Origin: Chloroflexota bacterium
GTDB lineage: Bacteria > Chloroflexota > Dehalococcoidia > JACPPY01
Direction of reading: 5' to 3'
NCBI GenBank assembly: GCA_040754215.1
Contig: JBFMDE010000002.1
Location: 1 to 61,446, forward strand
DNA: 61,446 nt
Positions 4,528-61,267 of this stretch are shown here, one piece after another. The translations under genes and the position numbers were made by a program. A model generated the notes under the pieces. The model had not been told where the DNA came from. It did no database searches and was given only the letters and a program-made list of their open reading frames with translations. Position 1 is the stretch's first letter; each line of letters opens with the position of its first letter.

Positions 4528-5525
4528 CCACCATCTACAATCATCCAGAACCTGACCGCTATGGCGACATGGGCGAGGCCGAGGCGGTTCTTGGCATTAT
4601 GGAGACGGTGGAGGCAGTGGGTGGGGCATTGTCTGGCCTTGGCTACCCGGTGACACGAGTCCCATTGCAGCCACCGCTGGAGCACGCCCTGGGAGCGCTG
4701 AACTTCCTGAGCACTGATGTGGTCTTCAACCTCTTCGAGGGTTTCGACGGCCGTCCGGAGACGGAAGCCGTCGTGGCCGATGCCCTTTCGAGCCTGGGAT
4801 TGACCTTCACCGGCTGTCCCGGTAATGCACTGGCCCTGGCGCTGGACAAAGCTAGGGCCAAGTCACTGCTGAAGGCAGCAGGGATTAGTACACCCGCGTA
4901 CTGTGTCCTCAGCCCTGGAGCTATCTCCAGATTCAATCTGAACTATCCGTGTATCGTCAAGCCTCTGCGGGAAGACGCCAGCCATGGCCTCTCCGAAGAG
5001 AATGTGGTCCGCGACCAGGTCTCACTGGAGAGACAGGTGGCCAGGGTGAGCGAGTTCTTCGGTGGTGAGGCGCTGGTAGAGGAGTTCGTCGGGGGGCGGG
5101 AGTTTAACGTTACTGTGCTCGGTGACCGCGAGCTTTCTGTCCTCCCGGTCTCGGAGATAGTCTACTCGCTGCCGCCCGAGATGCCGCGCGTCCTCACTTT
5201 CGCTGCCAAGTGGGAACCAGGGAGCCTCTACTTTCGTCGTACCAAGCCCGTCTGCCCTGCGAGGATAGGTGCTGAAGAGAGGGAACGCATCGGCTCTATT
5301 GCCCGGGCGGCATTCACGCTGTTCGGTTGCCGTGGCTATGCCAGGATGGACATGAGGTTGGACCGGAATGGCGTGCTCAACGTCCTGGAGGTAAATCCCA
5401 ACCCGGACATATCGCCCGGGACCGGAGCGGCCCGACAGGCCGAGGCGTCCGGGCTGACCTATGCTCAATTTATGGAGAAGATACTGCTCCTAGCCTTGGA
5501 GAAAGATTTAGTTATGGCGGTATGA
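4512..5525 (+). CDS. ATP-grasp ligase, D-alanine--D-alanine ligase family (paralog 2)
   Basis: 337 aa, with the same architecture as the preceding ORF (EVNPNPD C-terminal motif). GGAGAG lies 9 nt upstream. Overlaps the upstream gene by 16 nt. Confidence 0.8.
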   Translation: MRPRVATIYNHPEPDRYGDMGEAEAVLGIMETVEAVGGALSGLGYPVTRVPLQPPLEHALGALNFLSTDVVFNLFEGFDGRPETEAVVADALSSLGLTFTGCPGNALALALDKARAKSLLKAAGISTPAYCVLSPGAISRFNLNYPCIVKPLREDASHGLSEENVVRDQVSLERQVARVSEFFGGEALVEEFVGGREFNVTVLGDRELSVLPVSEIVYSLPPEMPRVLTFAAKWEPGSLYFRRTKPVCPARIGAEERERIGSIARAAFTLFGCRGYARMDMRLDRNGVLNVLEVNPNPDISPGTGAARQAEASGLTYAQFMEKILLLALEKDLVMAV

Positions 5526-42055: not shown

Positions 42056-45000
42056 ATGTCCAGGTGGTGTCCGCGGTGGTCGAAGTGTCTCTCTATCGTC
42101 CTGGTCTTAGCCCTGGTAGTCCAGCTCATCCCCTCTGTCGCAGGGGCATCTGTCGTATCCCGCGTTGCATCCTCGGTCCATTCCCTGCTGACCAGCGCCT
42201 CTGGAGATGGCCTCCAGCTTACCGACGGTCCTGCTAGCTCAGCCGGATTGGCGCGCCAGAGGCTACCCAAACCACCGAGCCCGCCAAAGCCACCGCAGCC
42301 AGCAATCCCGCCCGAACCCTCGGTCTCCGTGGAGGTGCTGCCCGACCAGCCCGCCGAGCTTGTCTCCACCACCGGACAGGTCAGGGTCTCCTTCCCCACC
42401 GGGGCGGTCGCCGAGAAAGTGACGGCTACATACACCCCCGTGCCATCCGAGTCCACGGCCGGCCCCGTACTCTTCAAGGTATTCAGGCTCGAGGCCATGT
42501 CGGCCAGCGGCGCCACCGCCGTCACCAGCTTCGGCAAGGAGCTGGAGATAAGCCTCAGCTACACCGACAAGGACATCGCCGGTCTCGACCCCAGGACGCT
42601 GATGCTCTACTACTTCGACGAGGTCAAGGCGGACTGGGTACAGCTGCCTTCCAAGGTAGACGCCTCGGCCCATAGGGTGACCGCCAGCACCGATCACTTC
42701 ACCGTCTATGGCGGAGGCGCCATACCTGCCTACTCCATCCCCGGCACCATCATGGACTTCCAGGCCGACCTGCATTCGGGGACCGCGACGGCCAGATACC
42801 CCATCGAGCTTCCACCGGGCCCCGGCACCTTCCAGCCCGAGCTGACGCTCACCTACAACTCCGGCTCTGTGGACGAGATGAAGAGCAAGCGGGACGTCGG
42901 CTCCTGGGTGGGCATGGGCTGGACGCTGCACTGGAGCCGCGTGTTCTACAACGAGGACGAGGACAAGTACTTCCTGGAGTTCAACGGTGCCTCCTACGAG
43001 CTGATACTGGGCACGGACGGCATATACCGGATGCAGGGCCAGTTCTGGAAGATGACCAAGCCAAATGGCACCACCTTTGAGCTGTGGGACACCGACGGCA
43101 CCTACTACCGCTTCGGCGGCACCACGGACTCCGTCCAGTACCGTGTTACCGATGGCAATACCGTCAACTATAGGTATGACCTGAGCCTGGCCGAGGACGT
43201 CCACGGCAACCAGATGACTGTCACCTACTCCCAGGACGTGTGGAACGGGGACGTGCGCTCGGCCTACCCCCTGGACATCCACTACGGCGTGGGCAGCGCG
43301 GTCAACGTGCACTTCAACTCCAGCTTCGACATCACCGGCGACCCCACCGACGGCAACCTGAGAGACGACAACCCCAGGAGCACCCCGGCCAACCCGGCGC
43401 CCGAGATAATGGAGAACAAGAAGCTGACCTCCATCGAGGTCAAGGTGAGCGGCAGCCAGGTGCGCAAGTACGAGTTCGCCTACAACACCACCGACAGCTA
43501 CTACTCCGCCGACTACGGCGGCATTTACTATGCCGGCACGCACACTCTCTCCTCCATCACGCAGAAGGGCACCGGCGCCGAGTCCCTTCCCGCCATGACC
43601 TTCTCCTACCAGAACAAGTACATCCGCTACTACAACTCCTCGGGCAGCGTCACCGCTTCGCTGAGCTGGCCTCACCTCTATCAGGCCAACAGCGGCTTCG
43701 GCGCCACGGTCAGCTACACCTATGCCGAGAGGCCGAGCGCCCCTGCCTACAGCATCTGGACGCGGGAGGTGGTGACCCAGAGGCAGCTGAACCCCGGCAT
43801 CGGCTCCACACAGATCACCGCCTATACCTACGTCGGCTACCCCAAGATATACCTCGACCCTGCCCTGCCCGACTACTCCAACATGGCATACCGTGGCTTC
43901 GACCAGGTGGAGGAGGCGGACGCCGCGGGCAACGTCACCAGGCACTTCTTCTACACCAACGGCTACTACTTGGTAAACAACCCCCTGGGCTGGCCGGAAG
44001 AGAAGTGGGCTTTCGACCTTCCAGGCCGGGAGTACCAGACCCACTGGCTGGAGAAGGGGCTGGTGGTGAGGACGTCCTTCCGCGACTGGACGACCGTCTG
44101 GGACGGCACTGTGGACCACCCCATCCTGCATGGCGTCGGAGAGGTCCAGGGAGACGAGGTGGCCTGGACCTACTACTGGTACGACGCCTATGGCAACGTC
44201 GTCCGGGAGCAGCGGTACGGCGACGCGGAGCAGAGCGGGGACGAGAGCACCGTCTTCCGCGTGTACTACCCCAACACCACCGACTGGGTCGTCAACAGGG
44301 TGGCCAGGGAGAGCATCTACAGCGGGGAGCTGTCCACCGAGCCGCCCGACGGCATCGGGCTGAAGCAGCGGACGTACTACTACTATGATGGCAACAACAG
44401 CGACCCGACCGTGCCGCCCACCAAGGGCGACCTCACCAGAGTCGCGCAGTGCCTCAGCGCCTCGATCCTGGGGCCCTCGTTCTACTATACCTACGACAGC
44501 TACGGGAACAGGACGAGCGAGCAGGACCCCAATGGCAACACCACCTCCTATACCATAGATACCACCTACTATACCTATGTCGCCAGGAAGACCTACCCCG
44601 CCGTGGGGGGCTCGCCGGCCATGTACGAGGACTACACCTGGGACTACGTGCTGGGCAGGCCGCTGAGCGTGACCGACGTCAACGGCCAGGTCACCTCCTA
44701 CGAGTACGACACCCTGGGCCGGAGGACCAAGGAGATACGGCCGGGCGACAGCTCCGCCAGCGCCACCGTGAAGTACACCTACGTCTCCTGGGGCACCATC
44801 AACTCGCAGCACGTCAAGTCGGAGCAGAAGGTGGCGGAGGGCGACTACCTGTGGCAGAAGACCTACTTCGACGGGGCGGGCCGCGTGGTGCAGGTGCAGG
44901 CCCGAGCCGAGGACAACAAGAGCATAGTCTCCTCCACCACCGCCTACAGCAACCGCGGCCTGGTGGAGAAGAGCTACGCCCCCTGGATGCTGGCCTCGGA

Positions 45001-48000
45001 GCAGAGCCAGTACCAGGCGCCCGGGAGTTCCCAGCCCTACGACTCGTACGAGTACGATGCCCTGGGCAGGGCCGTCTCGACGGAGAAAGCGGACGGCACC
45101 ATATCTGGCACCGACTACATGGGCCCCTGGGAACAGGCGGCCACCGACGAGAAGGGGGCCAGGAAGAGCTACAGCTACGACGCCTTCGGCCAACTGGCCC
45201 AGGTGAAGGAGTACGACCTGCCACCGACGTACCTCAGCCAGTTCGGCGGCCCGGCAGAGCTATCCGGCCCTCAAGGGATATCCGCGGTCAGGGGTGGGCT
45301 GACCTTCGTCGCCGACACCGGCAACCACCGCGTCCAGAAGTACTCCGGCGGCGTGCTCAAGGGGTCGGTGGGCAGCTATGGCAGTGGCGACGAGCAGTTC
45401 AAGTCACCCTACGATGTGGAGGTCACCGGCGACGGGCGGTACTTCTATGTCGCCGATACCACCAACAACCGGGTGGCCCAGTGGTCCAACGAGGTCTACG
45501 AGCTCCTCCAGTTCGGCAGCTACGGGGAGGCCTCCCGCCAGTTCAACACTCCCAGGGGCGTGGCGCTGAACTCGGCTGGGAATGTGGTGTTTGTTGCGGA
45601 TACCTACAACAACCGCGTTGTCAGGTATAACTCCGCCGGCACCTACTACACCAAGTGGGGCAGCTCTGGCGAGGGCGACGGGCAGTTCAACTGGCCCTAC
45701 GATGTCGCCGTGGACAGCTCCAGCTACGTGTACGTCGTTGACAACGGCAACAACCGCATCCAGAAGTTCAACGTCATAGGCGGCTTCATCGCCAAGTGGG
45801 GCGAGTACGGGAGCGGGGACGGCCAGTTCTGCTATCCCGAGGGCATCGCCTTCGGCAACAGCTACATCTACGTGGTCGACACTCAGAACTTCCGCGTGCA
45901 GTACTTCACCACCTCGGGCACGTATGTGGGCCAGTGGGGCAGCGAGGGCTATGGCGAGGGAGAGTTCGTATGGCCAACGGACGTCGCGGTGGCCCCCGAC
46001 GGCTATGTGTACGTGGCCGACTGGTGGGGCATACAGAAGTTCACCTCCACGGGCGGCTTCGTCGCCAGGTGGCTCAACGACACCCCCATTGACGGCGAGT
46101 ACTGGTACCCCCAGCACATCGCCGTGGACGGCAGCGGGAAGGTCTACGTGACGGACTACGGCAACCGGGCCCTGGTCTTCGACTCCAGCGGAAACTTCAT
46201 CGAGAAATGGGGCAGGCCGGGCTACGACGAGGGCGAATTCAACAGGCCCCTTGGCATCGCCTACGACCGGACGAACGACAAGGTCTGGGTGGCCGACAGC
46301 AACAACCACCGGGTGCAGAAGTTCGAGGCCGCCACCAGGTTCGTCAGGAAGTGGGGCAGCTATGGCACAGGCAACGGCTATTTCAGGTCTCCCAAGGGTA
46401 TCGGGGTAGACGATGCCGGCAACGTCTACATGGCCGATACCGACAACAACCGCATCCAGAAGTTCGATTCTGCGGGCACCTATGTCACCAAATGGGGCAC
46501 CCTGGGCTCCGGCAACGGGCAGTTCAACAAGCCCTGGGACGTGGCCGTGGACTACAGCGGCTACGTGTACGCGGTGGACAAGGACAACAACCGGGTGCAG
46601 AAGTTCACCTCAACGGGGACCTTCATCACCAAATGGGACGTCACCAACCCTACCAGGCTCGCCATTGATGGCGCGGGCTACGTCTACGTGTCCAGCGCCT
46701 CGGCGAACCAGGTGCAGAAGTTCACCCCGGAAGGGGGCCTGCTATTAACATGGGGCACCGGTGGCACTGGCAACGGCGAGTTCAACAGCCCGCAGGGCAT
46801 CACCCTGACCGGGGACAGCCTGAGCGAGCTCCAGGTGGTGGACAGCGGCAACAACCGCGTGCAGTGCTTCGACGGCATGGGTACGTCCTACTCCACAACG
46901 AGCTACTCCTACGATGTGCTGGGCAACCTCACCCAGGCGGTGGACAACGCCAGCAACACCACCACCATCAGCTACAACATGCTCTCCCGCAAGACGGGGA
47001 TGTCAGACCCCGACATGGGGAGTTGGAGCTACGCCTACGATGACAACGGCAACCTCACCAGCCAGACCGATGCCAGGAGTCAGACGCTCACCTTCGAATA
47101 CGATGCCCTGAACCGTTTGACAGCGAGGAAGAACGGTGCCAACACCCTGGCGAGCTACACCTATGACAGCACCACTGGCGGGAACATGGGCAAGGGTCGC
47201 CGCACCGGAATGACGGACGCCGGCGGCTCGGCCACCTACGTCTACGATGCACGCGGGCGCACGACCAAGGAGGACCGCGTCATAGATAGCGTCACCTACA
47301 CCACGGAGTACGCCTACGACCCGGCGGACCGCGTCTCCACTATTACCTACCCCACCAACGAGGTGGTGACGCAGGCCTACAACGCCCGCGGGCTGCCCTA
47401 CTCCCTGTCAGGCTCGGTGGCGGGGACGCTGGTGAGCGCCGCCTCCTACAACCAACTCGGCCAGACGGGCCAGGTAGACCTGGGCAACGGGCTGCGCACG
47501 GTGTTCAACTACCATGGGCTGGACACGCTGGACGGGGGCGACCCCTCCAGCTACTACGGCAAGCTCTACCGCATCAAGGCATACAAGGTCTCCGACAGCA
47601 CCGAGCGCCTGCACCTCAAGTACTGGTGGGACGCCGCAGGGAACCTGACTTCGCGCAAGGACGTGATGGCCTCCGAGACAGAGGGCTTCTCCTACGACTT
47701 CCTCGACCGGCTCACCGGCGCCAGCGGGCCGTACACGGAGTCGTACGCCTACAACGCCATAGGGAACATGACGAGCAAGAACGGCGTGAGCTACACCTAT
47801 GGCACAAAGCCCCACGCTGTGACCGGCGTGGGCAGCTACACGAATACCTATGATGCCAACGGCAACATGCTCACCCGCCAGAACGCCACCGGCAGTCAGG
47901 CGCTGACCTGGGACGTGGAGAGCCACCTCTCCCGGGTAGAGGGCACAGGCGGGGGCTACTCGGGCACCACCACCTTCGTCTACGACGGCGACGGCAACCG

Positions 48001-49042
48001 CATCAAGAAGACCGAGGGCGGCCAGACGGTGGTGTACGTCAACAGGTACTACGAGAAGAACACCACCACGGGCGAGGCCACCTCCCACTACTACCTGGGA
48101 GGCCAGGAGGTAGCGATAAAGAAGGGCGCCGTCCTCGAGTACCTGCACCAGGACCACCTGAGCAGCAACTCCCTGAGCACGGATACGGCCGGGGCGCAGG
48201 TGTCCACCCTGAAGTTTTATCCCTTCGGGGCCACGAGGTCATCGAGTGGCACCCTGGGCACCAACAAGATGTTCACCTCGCAGAGGCTGGACACGGGGGC
48301 CGACCTCTACTTCTACAACGCGAGGTACTACGACCAGGGGCTGGGGAGGTTCATCTCTGCGGACACCGTGATACCGGACTTCAGGAACCCCCAGGCCTTG
48401 AACCGCTACACATATGTGCTCAACAACCCCTTGAAGTACATTGACCCCACGGGGCACAAGTGGTTGGACGATGTTGATGAACCCACGCCGGTGTCTCCCG
48501 CGCCGCCTGCACCGCCCACCCCAGACCCCTTTACTGGTGCCCCCGATCCTACCCCACCCGGTGTGCCGGATGGCGGGGCTACTCAGCCATCGCCGATAGA
48601 GACGGTGCCGGGAGTGCCCGACGTTGGGGCTGGTGCTCCAGGTGGCCACCCGGTTGATGACCCGGGCTTGCCTGTCACGAACGCGCCGGATGCTGGCCAA
48701 GAAATAAACCTCGGCGTGGTCAGGATAACTCACGTGTCGGATCAAGCGGAGCTTTACTTAGACGCCGCCGCTGTCCTTGGCGATGTCGTATCTTTTATCC
48801 CGACTCCTTATACAGTTGTCGGAGGCTTTGTGGTGTCTCTCGTGAGCAGTTACGCTGGAATGATCCGTACAGGTGTTAAGTACGGCCGAGGGGAAGCCAC
48901 TGCAGAAGACCTCGACATTTCCGTTGCAACTAATTTCACCGGAATGTTACCCTGGGTTGGTGTCATACCGGCTCTCATACAGTTGAACCATGACGCAAAG
49001 AATCAGGGGGTCAAAGTACAATGGTTCTGGAGTAGCGACTGA
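42056..49042 (+). CDS. Giant secreted Rhs/YD-repeat protein (TcB/TcC- or teneurin-like) with an internal NHL block and a variable C-terminal tip
   Basis: 2328 aa. Signal peptide, proline-rich spacer, SpvB/TcB-like N-region (GTFQPELTLTYNSGS..GMGWTL), many YD repeats, 12 NHL repeats and an Rhs core ending in NNPLKYIDPTGH. Confidence 0.9.
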   Translation: MSRWCPRWSKCLSIVLVLALVVQLIPSVAGASVVSRVASSVHSLLTSASGDGLQLTDGPASSAGLARQRLPKPPSPPKPPQPAIPPEPSVSVEVLPDQPAELVSTTGQVRVSFPTGAVAEKVTATYTPVPSESTAGPVLFKVFRLEAMSASGATAVTSFGKELEISLSYTDKDIAGLDPRTLMLYYFDEVKADWVQLPSKVDASAHRVTASTDHFTVYGGGAIPAYSIPGTIMDFQADLHSGTATARYPIELPPGPGTFQPELTLTYNSGSVDEMKSKRDVGSWVGMGWTLHWSRVFYNEDEDKYFLEFNGASYELILGTDGIYRMQGQFWKMTKPNGTTFELWDTDGTYYRFGGTTDSVQYRVTDGNTVNYRYDLSLAEDVHGNQMTVTYSQDVWNGDVRSAYPLDIHYGVGSAVNVHFNSSFDITGDPTDGNLRDDNPRSTPANPAPEIMENKKLTSIEVKVSGSQVRKYEFAYNTTDSYYSADYGGIYYAGTHTLSSITQKGTGAESLPAMTFSYQNKYIRYYNSSGSVTASLSWPHLYQANSGFGATVSYTYAERPSAPAYSIWTREVVTQRQLNPGIGSTQITAYTYVGYPKIYLDPALPDYSNMAYRGFDQVEEADAAGNVTRHFFYTNGYYLVNNPLGWPEEKWAFDLPGREYQTHWLEKGLVVRTSFRDWTTVWDGTVDHPILHGVGEVQGDEVAWTYYWYDAYGNVVREQRYGDAEQSGDESTVFRVYYPNTTDWVVNRVARESIYSGELSTEPPDGIGLKQRTYYYYDGNNSDPTVPPTKGDLTRVAQCLSASILGPSFYYTYDSYGNRTSEQDPNGNTTSYTIDTTYYTYVARKTYPAVGGSPAMYEDYTWDYVLGRPLSVTDVNGQVTSYEYDTLGRRTKEIRPGDSSASATVKYTYVSWGTINSQHVKSEQKVAEGDYLWQKTYFDGAGRVVQVQARAEDNKSIVSSTTAYSNRGLVEKSYAPWMLASEQSQYQAPGSSQPYDSYEYDALGRAVSTEKADGTISGTDYMGPWEQAATDEKGARKSYSYDAFGQLAQVKEYDLPPTYLSQFGGPAELSGPQGISAVRGGLTFVADTGNHRVQKYSGGVLKGSVGSYGSGDEQFKSPYDVEVTGDGRYFYVADTTNNRVAQWSNEVYELLQFGSYGEASRQFNTPRGVALNSAGNVVFVADTYNNRVVRYNSAGTYYTKWGSSGEGDGQFNWPYDVAVDSSSYVYVVDNGNNRIQKFNVIGGFIAKWGEYGSGDGQFCYPEGIAFGNSYIYVVDTQNFRVQYFTTSGTYVGQWGSEGYGEGEFVWPTDVAVAPDGYVYVADWWGIQKFTSTGGFVARWLNDTPIDGEYWYPQHIAVDGSGKVYVTDYGNRALVFDSSGNFIEKWGRPGYDEGEFNRPLGIAYDRTNDKVWVADSNNHRVQKFEAATRFVRKWGSYGTGNGYFRSPKGIGVDDAGNVYMADTDNNRIQKFDSAGTYVTKWGTLGSGNGQFNKPWDVAVDYSGYVYAVDKDNNRVQKFTSTGTFITKWDVTNPTRLAIDGAGYVYVSSASANQVQKFTPEGGLLLTWGTGGTGNGEFNSPQGITLTGDSLSELQVVDSGNNRVQCFDGMGTSYSTTSYSYDVLGNLTQAVDNASNTTTISYNMLSRKTGMSDPDMGSWSYAYDDNGNLTSQTDARSQTLTFEYDALNRLTARKNGANTLASYTYDSTTGGNMGKGRRTGMTDAGGSATYVYDARGRTTKEDRVIDSVTYTTEYAYDPADRVSTITYPTNEVVTQAYNARGLPYSLSGSVAGTLVSAASYNQLGQTGQVDLGNGLRTVFNYHGLDTLDGGDPSSYYGKLYRIKAYKVSDSTERLHLKYWWDAAGNLTSRKDVMASETEGFSYDFLDRLTGASGPYTESYAYNAIGNMTSKNGVSYTYGTKPHAVTGVGSYTNTYDANGNMLTRQNATGSQALTWDVESHLSRVEGTGGGYSGTTTFVYDGDGNRIKKTEGGQTVVYVNRYYEKNTTTGEATSHYYLGGQEVAIKKGAVLEYLHQDHLSSNSLSTDTAGAQVSTLKFYPFGATRSSSGTLGTNKMFTSQRLDTGADLYFYNARYYDQGLGRFISADTVIPDFRNPQALNRYTYVLNNPLKYIDPTGHKWLDDVDEPTPVSPAPPAPPTPDPFTGAPDPTPPGVPDGGATQPSPIETVPGVPDVGAGAPGGHPVDDPGLPVTNAPDAGQEINLGVVRITHVSDQAELYLDAAAVLGDVVSFIPTPYTVVGGFVVSLVSSYAGMIRTGVKYGRGEATAEDLDISVATNFTGMLPWVGVIPALIQLNHDAKNQGVKVQWFWSSD
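45240..46875 (+). repeat. Twelve tandem NHL-type beta-propeller repeats (about 45 aa each) within the Rhs ORF
   Basis: F-x-x-P-x-G-[IV]-A-[VL]-D...[VY]-[VA]-D-x-x-N-[NH]-R-[VI]-Q-K-F recurs 12 times. The DNA-level 21-mer aacaaccgcatccagaagttc recurs. Confidence 0.85.
48443..48457 (+). other. Rhs core C-terminal DPxG motif (expected aspartyl autoproteolysis site)
   Basis: DPTGH follows YYNARYYDQGLGRFISADTV...NRYTYVLNNPLKYI, the canonical Rhs-associated core end. Confidence 0.6.
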
Positions 49043-49287
49043 TGAAAGTAGTGGGCATCATTTTTCTCGCAGCTTGGACCGTACTGGTGCTGTACCTGTC
49101 CCATGGTGCGTTCTTCAGGGATTTCGCGAGGAGGACCTATGAGATCGGCACTACCTACTTCCCCACCTTTCTCATATGGCCGAAAGGATTGCGGCTATTT
49201 TCGGTGGTGTACAAGGCACTGGTGCTGCTTTTCTTGCTGTCGACCGTCGCATTCTATGTGCTGATGCTCTTGGCAATCCTTTCATAA
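49042..49287 (+). CDS. Small polytopic membrane protein, putative immunity partner of the Rhs tip
   Basis: 81 aa with 2-3 hydrophobic helices. The ATG shares one base with the Rhs stop (TGATG), and GGAG lies 9 nt upstream. Same lower-GC composition as the Rhs tip. Confidence 0.55.
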   Translation: MKVVGIIFLAAWTVLVLYLSHGAFFRDFARRTYEIGTTYFPTFLIWPKGLRLFSVVYKALVLLFLLSTVAFYVLMLLAILS

Positions 49288-49512: not shown

Positions 49513-50064
49513 TCATAAACTCAACAGCTGCTTCAGCGGACTCGCCTTTTCACGCATCCACACCGATGGCTCTTGCTCGGATCGCTCCCATCTTGCCAGC
49601 GTGCCCGGGTCGATGCCTGCCAACCTCGCAGCCTGTTCCTGTGTGAAACCCTTCATAAATCTCGCCTTCCTCAACCTTGCCCCGAAGCCTCTGAGGTCGT
49701 GGACCGACGGATGGCATAACCTCGCCACCAAGTCCCCATAGTCAACCCCAAGAAGTTCGCAGAGGGACTTCACCTTGAAATAACCCCTCTTGGGGAGTCC
49801 TCCCAACTTCTCCCAGTTCACGACAGTCATCTCGTCCACTCCAATGGCCTTCGCCACATCCACCTACCTCAGCCCTTTCTCCAACCTTGCTTTCCTGATA
49901 TACTCTCCGAAGGTAGAGGAAGGATAACGGGATGTGCTGAATGACAGTACAAGCGGTTTCACAAACGAATCTGGCTGGTGGTTGTGGATTGCGACTGCGT
50001 GGTTGCTCACTGTGTTTCCACAGCAGCCGGAACTCTGAGCGCTTGCCGACAGGAACGTTGACAC
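49513..50064 (-). pseudogene. Tandem XRE-family HTH regulator interrupted by an in-frame TAG
   Basis: Track ORFs 49864..50064 and 49513..49863 are contiguous and in frame. FGEYIRKARLEKGLR-TAG-VDVAKAIGVDEMTVVNWE reads as one XRE HTH. A second HTH follows (FGARLRKARFMKGFTQEQAARLAGIDPGTLARWE). Confidence 0.6.
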
Positions 50065-60285: not shown

Positions 60286-60852
60286 ATGCTGGGTTCACAT
60301 ATTACTACGACCATCAGTCAGAAGGTTCTGAGCTTCCTTGCCAAGTTCTCGGACAAAGAATTCTACGAGCGGCAAGTTGCTCGCAGGCTTGGTATAGCTT
60401 ACGGCTCGGCAAACCGGTCCTTGAATGAGCTGTATTCGACAGGCGCTATCACACGGAGGCGAGAAGGGAAGATGTACTTTTACTCCGTGAATGCTTCCAA
60501 TGCAGCCATAGCAGAGTACAAGAAGCTGGTAAACCTGATACTCGTTGAGCCATTAGTAGAGAAGTTGAAGGGCATAGCGGACCGCATAATACTCTATGGA
60601 AGCTGTGCCCAGGGCACGGATACTTCCCAAAGTGACCTTGACTTGTTTATCGTCGCGGATAACAGAGAGGATGTGGCTGGTGTGGTCGGCGAATTCAGCC
60701 TGCCGAAAGGCTATGAAGACCTGCATATCCAACCGGTAATCAAAACCCCTGTTGAGCTTCTGCAGATTGGGGAATTGGAACGCGCCTTCATTGAAGAAGT
60801 GGAGCGCGGGATCGTTCTCTGGGAGAGGGCTGCCAGTGAATCAAGAGTTTAA
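60286..60852 (+). CDS. wHTH-fused minimal nucleotidyltransferase (MNT-type antitoxin-like)
   Basis: 188 aa. N-terminal wHTH (RQVARRLGIAYGSANRSLNELYSTGAI) and the NTase motif LYGSCAQGTDTSQSDLDLFIV. Confidence 0.8.
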   Translation: MLGSHITTTISQKVLSFLAKFSDKEFYERQVARRLGIAYGSANRSLNELYSTGAITRRREGKMYFYSVNASNAAIAEYKKLVNLILVEPLVEKLKGIADRIILYGSCAQGTDTSQSDLDLFIVADNREDVAGVVGEFSLPKGYEDLHIQPVIKTPVELLQIGELERAFIEEVERGIVLWERAASESRV

Positions 60853-61267
60853 GCAGTGTCTTGAGAGCAAGAAAATAATCCCTTTTGAACGGGGCAAAGG
60901 ACTGATCAAGAAAGAACTCTCGACCGCTGAGAGCGACCTTTCCGATGCCAAAGCCGGCTATCAAGACAAACGCTTCAAGTGGTCAACCATCCAGGCCTAC
61001 TATTCCATGTTCCACGCAGCCAGGGCGCTCATCTATTCCAGAGGCTATCGCGAGAAGAGTCACTATTGTCTTGCCGTCGCATTGAGAGCCTTGTATGTGG
61101 AGGAAGGCAAGTTGGATGCTCAGGCAGCGCGAGACTTCCTCAGTGCTATGAACCTACGAGAGGCAGCGGACTATGAGGCCAAGTTTTCTGATTCTGGAGA
61201 TCGAGTAGTCATCGCTTCTGCCGAGAACTTCATAGGAAAAGCAAAGGTTGTCCTGGGTGTTGGCTGA
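60836..61267 (+). CDS. HEPN-domain protein (toxin-like partner)
   Basis: GTG 60836 follows GGGAGAGGG and overlaps the NTase end by 17 nt. All-helical, with YYSMFHAARALI and LREAADYE HEPN-family signatures. I did not see a canonical Rx4-6H motif. Confidence 0.7.
   Translation: MNQEFKQCLESKKIIPFERGKGLIKKELSTAESDLSDAKAGYQDKRFKWSTIQAYYSMFHAARALIYSRGYREKSHYCLAVALRALYVEEGKLDAQAARDFLSAMNLREAADYEAKFSDSGDRVVIASAENFIGKAKVVLGVG

Follow-up and report, generated by a model that had tools for sequence, protein, structure and literature searches.

What does the C-terminal end of an Rhs protein from the Chloroflexota do, and does the small gene that begins on its stop codon belong to it? We addressed this question in a stretch of 61,446 nt (contig JBFMDE010000002.1 of assembly GCA_040754215.1, positions 1 to 61,446 of the forward strand; hereafter, the window) from the metagenome-assembled genome (MAG) of a Chloroflexota bacterium. 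The list of open reading frames (ORFs) contains an Rhs/YD-repeat gene that encodes 2328 amino acids (aa), and an exact protein look-up identified its product as GenBank MEW6033336.1, annotated 'RHS repeat-associated core domain-containing protein'. The next gene, here called ORF81, encodes an 81-aa protein (locus tag AB1603_00610, annotated 'hypothetical'). An earlier note on this DNA had proposed that the last part of the Rhs protein (the tip) and ORF81 form a novel membrane-acting toxin/immunity pair. Our analysis suggests that the tip represents a new family of Rhs C-terminal toxins, small (~88 aa), hydrophobic and all-helical, that insert into and depolarise membranes, and that ORF81 encodes the cognate immunity protein with two transmembrane (TM) helices. 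We give this reading a probability of about 0.6.

Rhs/YD polymorphic toxins are recognized by RHS/YD repeats that lead into an Rhs core closing in DPxG[LHW], by a variable C-terminal domain directly after that core, and by a small downstream immunity gene that is co-inherited with the tip; each of these was found here. The core model TIGR03696 (Rhs_assc_core) matched aa 106-186 of the segment starting at position 47900 (E=1.5e-19). The core stops at DPTGH, so that position 48458 opens the first post-core codon. By analogy, DPTGH is presumed to be the point of autoproteolytic release of the tip; such cleavage is known from Tse5 and other Rhs proteins (PMC10684867). As the earlier note had read it, the end of the core is followed by a Pro-rich linker, and Pro-, Ser- or Gly-rich linkers also follow DPxGH in several tip homologues. 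Behind the linker, the note had described a domain of ~115 aa with two hydrophobic stretches. Both stretches are present, but the conserved domain is shorter and comprises 90 aa (Table 1). Aromatic tails similar to the terminal VKVQWFWSSD of the window protein were identified in several homologues by aligning the C-termini, and this Trp-rich tail may serve as an interfacial membrane anchor.

We then searched for relatives of the tip. An exhaustive phmmer search against 1.84 billion representatives yielded 20 matches, 19 of them genuine (E from 9e-11 to 1e-3). These 19 relatives share 31-42% identity with the window tip and were matched via their C-terminal 85-95 residues; the domain thus delimited is ~88 aa long. 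Most of them present the end of an Rhs core (…NNPLKY.DP.G[HRLQ]) 5' of a variable linker. The best-scoring match, P0002, was rejected as a low-complexity artefact: it is a granulin-like Cys-rich repeat protein of 1547 aa that was matched nine times through a short 'PWLEKVPPLI' stretch and thereby outranked all true homologues. A word-indexed search of the tip against 5.8 billion clusters gave no match, and a profile of the alignment described below retrieved only two of the relatives (P0019 and P0021) from the word-indexed database. Profile scans of genome and metagenome contig collections returned pattern matches and no confirmed relatives. All clusters of the family that we examined are singletons or nearly so. 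The tip family is very rare in current data.

The window tip and its 19 relatives were aligned (alignment A1). Positions D15, G74, Q81 and D85 are invariant, and D8, S33, T44, D57 and P71 are nearly invariant. A per-column analysis showed that core positions 3-42 and 58-86 are essentially charge-free in all members save for the conserved Asp residues; ~70 of the 90 core positions are never charged, and the variable charges concentrate in the loop 43-57. The grand average of hydropathy (GRAVY) is positive in all 20 members (+0.27 to +0.94), all of which are net acidic. For the core of the window tip it reaches +0.40, compared to -0.57 +/- 0.24 (maximum 0.16) for 90-aa windows of the Rhs body. 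AlphaFold2, run with A1, predicts four helices (2-18, 23-49, 55-68 and 75-89) forming two hydrophobic helical hairpins with P-x-P and P-x-x-G turns. D8 and D15 are 7 residues apart on predicted helix 1, and Q81 and D85 are 4 residues apart on predicted helix 4, so that each pair would lie on one helical face. It is tempting to speculate that Asp and Gln residues conserved at the ends of the hairpins are interfacial or pore-lining and impose a preference for cations or protons. An LD...IP pattern also raised the possibility of an internal duplication (hairpin 1 vs hairpin 2), which would need an insertion or deletion.

Catalogue searches of the tip family and of the ORF81 family described below gave scattered matches of single members only (E>0.02). 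We found no credible match for the tip or its 20 members in Pfam, NCBIfam, PDB sequences, PHROGs or PADLOC, and no Pfam match at E<=1 was consistent across the 20 members. In line with the earlier note, no nuclease, deaminase, ADP-ribosyltransferase or other catalogued family was recognized in the tip.

The position of ORF81 is as previously described: its first base doubles as the last one of the Rhs stop codon, with the TGA at 49040-49042 and the ATG at 49042-49044 sharing one base (TGATG). Hydropathy of its product (Kyte-Doolittle, 19-residue means) rises above 1.6 around residues 3-21 and 55-80, and AlphaFold2 predicts a hairpin from the single sequence (H2-39/H46-80; predicted local distance difference test score, pLDDT, 84). 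Where the earlier note had allowed for two or three TM helices, these results indicate two and not three. A word-indexed search of ORF81 retrieved its own sequence only. We inspected the loci of nine tip homologues, seven of which are available with DNA sequence (L001-L007; Table 1). An ORF81 homologue of 75-89 aa lies 0-20 nt past the tip stop codon, or overlaps it, in six of these seven loci. Two motifs, YG.FF[RK]D[FW]A.[RK] and YFP.F[LI].W, are common to the homologues and the window protein, as is a Lys that opens the second helix. A hidden Markov model (HMM) built from the six homologues, with the window sequence left out, was searched against 1147 six-frame segments of the window; it picked ORF81 with E=1.4e-18, the runner-up segment scoring E=1.5. 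Each locus has one tip and one partner, always adjacent, and the HMM of each family matches the window once. This conserved pairing is strong evidence for the toxin-immunity pair that the earlier note had proposed, and on these comparative grounds we consider it very probable that the tip and ORF81 form such a pair. The seven members of the ORF81 family (alignment A5) have no match in Pfam (Imm17 included) or the PDB, and no credible match was found for ORF81 or its family in PHROGs, PADLOC or NCBIfam.

The organization of the pair resembles that of several known systems. It shares with Tse5 (PA2684)/Tsi5 of Pseudomonas aeruginosa an Rhs cocoon with an aspartyl-protease core, a hydrophobic and non-enzymatic C-terminal fragment (149 aa in Tse5) with predicted TM or amphipathic helices, and a small two-TM immunity protein, like Tsi5, that is encoded alongside. 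The C-terminal fragment of Tse5 (Tse5-CT) forms cation-preferring pores and depolarises cells (PMC9637101, PMC10684867). The two systems differ in delivery and host: Tse5 is a PAAR-like protein delivered through type VI secretion (T6SS) with VgrG in a diderm, whereas the N-terminus of the window protein reads as a Sec signal peptide, and this protein carries an NHL propeller and belongs to a member of the Chloroflexota. Neither the tip nor the A1 profile matched the PDB at E<=10, where entry 8cp6 is present and may not include the Tse5-CT chain. Only 27 residues of Tse5-CT are resolved (PMC10684867), and a comparison of its fold with that of the tip is therefore uninformative.

The CDI (contact-dependent growth inhibition) ionophores, represented by CdiA-CT EC93, are likewise small, helical and hydrophobic domains at the C-terminus of a large polymorphic exoprotein. 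Their CdiI immunity proteins are two-TM proteins of 72-100 aa (PMC11630599). The ORF81 protein resembles CdiI in its two-TM hairpin and in a start codon overlapping the toxin stop codon (in EC93 too), and in both systems the cognate pairs are highly divergent, with ~30% identity. With the EC93 sequences taken from plasmid NZ_CP061330, the last 160 aa of CdiA-CT have a GRAVY of +0.11 and a best 19-residue mean of 1.76, compared to +0.40 and 1.62 for the window tip core; the corresponding values are 1.26 and 2.74 for ORF81 and 1.09 and 2.26 for CdiI (79 aa). The tip core is at least as hydrophobic as this experimentally proven ionophore, and ORF81 resembles CdiI in hydropathy. However, the resemblance is one of architecture and not of homology: hhalign gave a probability of 0.3% for A1 against CdiA-CT EC93 and of 0.1% for A5 against CdiI EC93. 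The CdiA-CT EC93 family is characterised by a five-helix bundle and a shared GxxxGxxxG motif, whereas the tip has four helices, predicted with moderate confidence, and lacks the motif. Moreover, the tip has a disordered Pro-rich linker instead of a structured entry domain, and its carrier is an Rhs protein rather than CdiA/CdiB of the type V secretion system (T5SS).

A third comparison is offered by Tox-WTIP, a group of small, highly hydrophobic, non-catalytic C-terminal domains on RHS proteins that are predicted to insert into membranes (PMC3482391). Tox-WTIP domains have two TM helices, the first marked by RxxR and the second by Wx[ST]IP, and occur in Proteobacteria (Zhang et al. 2012, PMC3482391). 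In contrast, the tip family has four predicted helices and no RxxR or Wx[ST]IP column in A1; the LPWVGVIP segment of the window tip does not fit Wx[ST]IP, and its Trp is 30% conserved. On the immunity side, Imm-CdiI and Imm17 are also small two-TM proteins encoded directly after the toxin (PMC3482391). Imm17 carries WxW and an Arg between its helices, whereas A5 shows no WxW; ORF81 instead has a loop with the conserved motif F[RK]D[FW]A..K/R, and the Lys with which TM2 begins (K58) is invariant. The novelty claimed in the earlier note applies to both sequence families. The kind of system is not new, since two-TM immunity proteins are already known to accompany pore-forming Rhs toxins.

The hydrophobic domain family, the membrane-embedded partner and the analogy to Tse5-CT/Tsi5 and to CDI ionophores with CdiI all argue for a membrane-acting mechanism, and a pore or an ionophore is, in our estimate, the probable form of it. 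We infer as follows how the tip would be cleaved off, enter the membrane and leak ions, and how immunity would work. The 2328-aa protein would be exported by Sec with the tip enclosed in the YD shell, and the aspartyl protease of the core would cut after DPTGH. On contact with a competitor, the freed 194-aa fragment would enter the cytoplasmic membrane via its two hydrophobic helical hairpins and oligomerise into, or act as, an ion-conducting pore, so that the membrane potential would collapse. Conserved Asp and Gln, located where the hairpins end, would be interfacial or face the pore lumen and so favour cations or protons. The hairpin protein encoded by ORF81 would bind the toxin within the membrane and thereby protect the producer.

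Several observations weigh against this proposal. The tip model is of moderate confidence (pLDDT 68; predicted template modelling score, pTM, 0.42), and a Foldseek search of the model against the PDB returned generic helical hairpins only, all with E>1. The hydrophobic arms are short (13-18 residues, helix 2 excepted), and the best 19-residue hydropathy of the tip, 1.62, is borderline for a transmembrane helix. A1 shows no canonical GxxxGxxxG glycine zipper, just a stripe of small residues (G29-S33-S37). The invariant Asp and Gln could equally well reflect catalysis or metal binding. At one locus (L004), the place of the immunity gene is held by a different membrane protein of 154 aa (E=0.023 against the family HMM), which may represent an alternative or duplicated type of immunity. 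Finally, many members of the family are short orphan fragments that may not be expressed.

Part of this evidence can be explained differently. A toxin-immunity pair could involve a membrane-embedded toxin that forms no pore, blocking or hijacking a transporter, a respiratory complex or Sec, or working, through the invariant Asp and Gln, as an enzyme on a lipid or a lipid-linked precursor. The residues D8, D15, D57, Q81 and D85 are invariant or nearly so within charge-free segments, as expected for a binding or catalytic site. Dependence on a target protein is also common: CDI ionophores require particular membrane proteins as receptors (PMC11630599), and a pore toxin of a Bacteroides T6SS depends on Rnf (PMC12718326). 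However, an all-helical domain of 88 aa is very small for an enzyme, the tip matches no enzymatic family, and its composition is like that of proven ionophores. We consider a poreless membrane toxin doubtful. It is far less plausible that the tip is a soluble cytoplasmic enzyme with an unrecognised fold. The membrane location of its partner would then be uninformative about the target, for example if immunity acted by blocking uptake, as Zhang et al. (2012) suggested might be the case for the two-TM proteins Imm-CdiI and Imm17 (PMC3482391), and the conserved acidic residues are compatible with such an enzyme. The positive GRAVY of all 20 members and the predominance of never-charged positions are nevertheless atypical of a soluble globular enzyme, and no translocation or entry domain is evident ahead of the tip, the linker being disordered.

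Membrane insertion and depolarisation remain our favoured explanation of the tip, and its base composition and distribution bear on how the module is inherited. Across the four regions compared, the Rhs body has a GC content of 0.632 and a third-position GC content (GC3) of 0.892, the linker has the highest GC content (0.679) with a GC3 of 0.603, and the tip and ORF81 have GC contents of 0.514 and 0.504 with GC3 values of 0.526 and 0.683. These values agree with the drop to ~50% GC described in the earlier note, and sliding windows of 50 codons confirm a breakpoint: GC3 falls from 0.92 to 0.64 between window starts 48281 and 48431, so that the break coincides with the core/tip junction (48440-48460). 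Overall, GC3 goes down at the end of the core from about 0.92 to about 0.55. Tip and ORF81 together (596 nt, GC 0.510) are among the lowest 0.8% of the 600-nt windows of the contig. Over its 116 codons, the tip GC3 departs from the expected 0.892 with z ~ -12.7. The GC content of the module is also below that of its flanks in all seven homologue loci with DNA, by 3-14 points (eight of eight with the window). Because GC3 is already reduced in the linker, the linker is counted as part of the swapped module. We also observed that the Rhs body (42056-48457, GC3 0.89) lies above every neighbouring gene (0.65-0.85); it is compositionally atypical for the contig in the direction opposite to its own tip.

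One could argue that the GC drop is merely a by-product of hydrophobic amino acids with T-rich codons and says nothing about recombination, since the low second-position GC of the tip (0.414) and of ORF81 (0.354) is expected for proteins rich in Val, Leu, Ile and Phe. This is very improbable. The largest change is at third positions, the drop starts in the linker, which is GC-rich, Pro-rich and non-hydrophobic, and the tip GC3 is outside the range of the host genes; a shift that is greatest at synonymous sites and already present in such a linker is not explained by amino-acid composition. Our results support the view that tip and small ORF together constitute a module set apart from the Rhs body by its composition, as would be expected if tips are swapped by recombination.

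The distribution of the homologues is consistent with such swapping, which the earlier note had also proposed: the tip domain occurs behind different Rhs cores, with different linkers, and as orphan cassettes, which are typical of rhs loci. Several homologues are short orphan genes (277-368 aa) that retain, ahead of the tip, just the final YD repeats, the core and a linker (L003, L004 and L005). These three orphans lie amid housekeeping genes (tRNA synthetases, gyrB, tgt), and no full-length rhs gene was seen in the flanks examined. The tip of P0012 (L004) carries a 40-aa C-terminal extension. In L003, a second, partial copy of the Rhs segment that starts the orphan (…AEREASTLRYFHQDSLSSTSLMTDSSGGSLG…) lies at 5175-5342, directly after the immunity gene, and looks like a direct repeat or recombination scar of cassette insertion or displacement. 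In L007 (360-4341), small gene pairs form an array on a metagenomic contig of low GC content (0.37): a DUF6973 gene with a 118-aa ORF, the tip homologue with its 81-aa ORF, an ORF of 185 aa, and a YD-shell fragment next to an ORF of 115 aa. The locus resembles an array of orphan toxin/immunity cassettes, in which P0007 keeps a remnant of the core end only (NLYAYCSNNPTNLIDPWGL). In the window itself, a repeat search detected no Rhs-core remnant or second cassette 3' of ORF81. The housekeeping proteins of the L003 and L004 contigs are >=90% identical to those of Dehalococcoidales, so that, with the window, at least three carriers are Chloroflexota.

Although many relatives are truncated orphan fragments amid housekeeping genes, we see hardly any room for the idea that the tip is no toxin at all, being instead a membrane anchor, an export or assembly element with an accessory partner, or a decaying remnant: it occupies the exact position of an Rhs toxin after an autoproteolytic core, it is found in arrays with other toxin/immunity-like cassettes (L007), the compositional break is the mark of a swapped cassette, and both proteins keep their motifs and intact ORFs at 31-42% identity over eight loci, which indicates purifying selection.

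The carrier protein is of interest for delivery. Read from the sequence, its order appears to be signal peptide, weak SpvB-like region, NHL propeller, YD shell, Rhs core, linker and tip. The N-terminus (MSRWCPRWSKCLSIVLVLALVVQLIPSVAGAS) reads by eye as a Sec-type signal peptide, and the SpvB-like stretch (aa 241-292, E=0.005) is below threshold. Pfam identified ten NHL stretches (2.6e-57) and nine RHS_repeat matches (6.5e-41) together with TEN_NHL, DUF6443, SGL and DUF5128, and the NHL region matched the NHL domains of TRIM71 and TRIM2 and the teneurin-like protein 9pt5 in the PDB. The signal peptide, the weak SpvB-like stretch and the ten-blade-equivalent NHL region give this protein of the Chloroflexota a 'propeller + YD shell' layout like that of teneurins and TcB. 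Pfam detected no PAAR, VgrG or LXG domain in it, and no T6SS or type VII secretion system (T7SS) genes surround the Rhs gene in the window, where the neighbours are metabolic genes and an XRE regulator. A signal peptide without PAAR, VgrG or LXG fits the 'signal peptide-SpvB-propeller-RHS' ('TcdB/TcaC-type') class, which Zhang et al. (2012) list for Chloroflexi (PMC3482391). The window protein shares with this class the apparent Sec signal peptide, the beta-propeller, the YD shell, the variable C-terminal toxin and the downstream immunity gene, but its propeller is of the NHL type (teneurin-like) and not integrin/FG-GAP-like. Among monoderms, WapA of Bacillus subtilis is a Sec-dependent Rhs protein that has tRNase tips and not a hydrophobic tip.

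These elements can be joined into a tentative picture, which we think has a limited chance of holding in all its parts: a minimal (~88 aa) self-inserting ionophore fold, intramembrane immunity and a delivery route of the Chloroflexota. The fold would consist of two short hydrophobic hairpins in which the invariant D8, D15, D57, Q81 and D85 conduct cations or protons, and the invariant Lys of the two-helix immunity protein would pair with one such Asp. The family would be essentially confined to Chloroflexota, Dehalococcoidales included. Finally, the Sec-secreted, teneurin-like Rhs protein would have direct access to the cytoplasmic membrane of its target, since an outer membrane (and, in some lineages, a cell wall) is absent. 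If correct, Rhs toxins of environmental monoderms would follow a distinct route of delivery and killing.

To our knowledge, the polymorphic toxins characterised so far include very few that are membrane-acting (non-enzymatic), and those we know of come nearly all from Proteobacteria and Firmicutes (Tse5, CDI ionophores, Ssp4/Ssp6, Tke5, TelE, EsxX and TspA); we are likewise aware of essentially no study of interbacterial antagonism in Chloroflexota. The module defines two uncatalogued families, one of 88-aa toxin domains and one of their two-TM partners (~80 aa), tied together by conserved linkage. Should the proposed function be true, the known set would gain a pore-forming or ionophore domain that is very small and tractable, ~20 'hypothetical' metagenomic proteins and their partners would gain an annotation, and the module would illustrate how environmental monoderms are armed by Rhs proteins that bear a propeller and are secreted by Sec. 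Systems of this type are established already, so no concept would be overturned.

Table 1. Features of the Rhs gene, its tip module and the tip homologue loci. Positions refer to the window or, for L001 to L007, to the locus named.
Feature	Positions	Strand	Basis or remark
Rhs/YD-repeat polymorphic toxin gene	42056..49042	+	ORF list, Pfam, exact look-up
NHL beta-propeller region within Rhs protein (aa ~1040-1610)	45170..46890, approximate	+	Pfam NHL, PDB matches
Rhs-associated core domain (aspartyl-protease plug), DPTGH end at 48443-48457	48215..48457	+	TIGR03696, sequence read
Linker, Pro-rich, low-complexity, 78 aa	48458-48691	+	translation
Non-conserved lead-in, 16 aa	48692-48739	+	translation
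Conserved tip core, 90 aa (DQAELYLD...DAKNQG), candidate membrane-inserting toxin domain	48740..49009	+	phmmer, A1, AlphaFold2
Trp-rich C-terminal tail (VKVQWFWSSD) and TGA stop (49040-49042)	49010..49042	+	alignment of C-termini
GGAG Shine-Dalgarno-like motif, 9 nt 5' of ORF81 ATG, within Rhs gene end	49029..49032	+	sequence read
ORF81, 81-aa two-TM protein, candidate cognate immunity protein	49042..49287	+	hydropathy, AlphaFold2, homologues
L001 / P0019	1210-1437		75-aa ORF directly downstream
L002 / P0021	1042-1275		77-aa ORF directly downstream
L003 / P0010	4849-5097		82-aa ORF directly downstream, uncalled by depositors
L004 / P0012	3392-3856		154-aa multi-TM protein, no significant similarity to 81-aa family
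L005 / P0015	1994-2263		89-aa ORF overlapping toxin end
L006 / P0003	4897-5031		ORF cut by contig end, start overlaps toxin stop
L007 / P0007	1761-2006		81-aa ORF directly downstream
P0016 (gene calls only)			83-aa gene 9 nt downstream
P0004 (gene calls only)			next ~400 nt without called gene

A scan of the window for promoters and terminators gave counts equal to the expectation from shuffled sequence. On the opposite strand, 226 nt 3' of the immunity gene, an XRE-type regulator with two helix-turn-helix (HTH) motifs is encoded at 49513-50064. An in-frame TAG at 49864-49866 splits it within the first HTH (between ...FGEYIRKARLEKGLR and VDVAKAIGVDEMTVVNWEK...), and the downstream ORF of 116 aa retains the second HTH (Pfam HTH_31/HTH_3); the split regulator could be a pseudogene, an assembly error or a case of restart at GTG. 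The sole other region of the contig that is as GC-poor as the tip (0.49-0.52) lies at 60286-61267 on the forward strand. It encodes a nucleotidyltransferase (Polbeta/NTP_transf_2, with an N-terminal winged HTH) followed by an overlapping HEPN-domain protein, an MNT-HEPN toxin-antitoxin-like pair that was probably acquired horizontally too.

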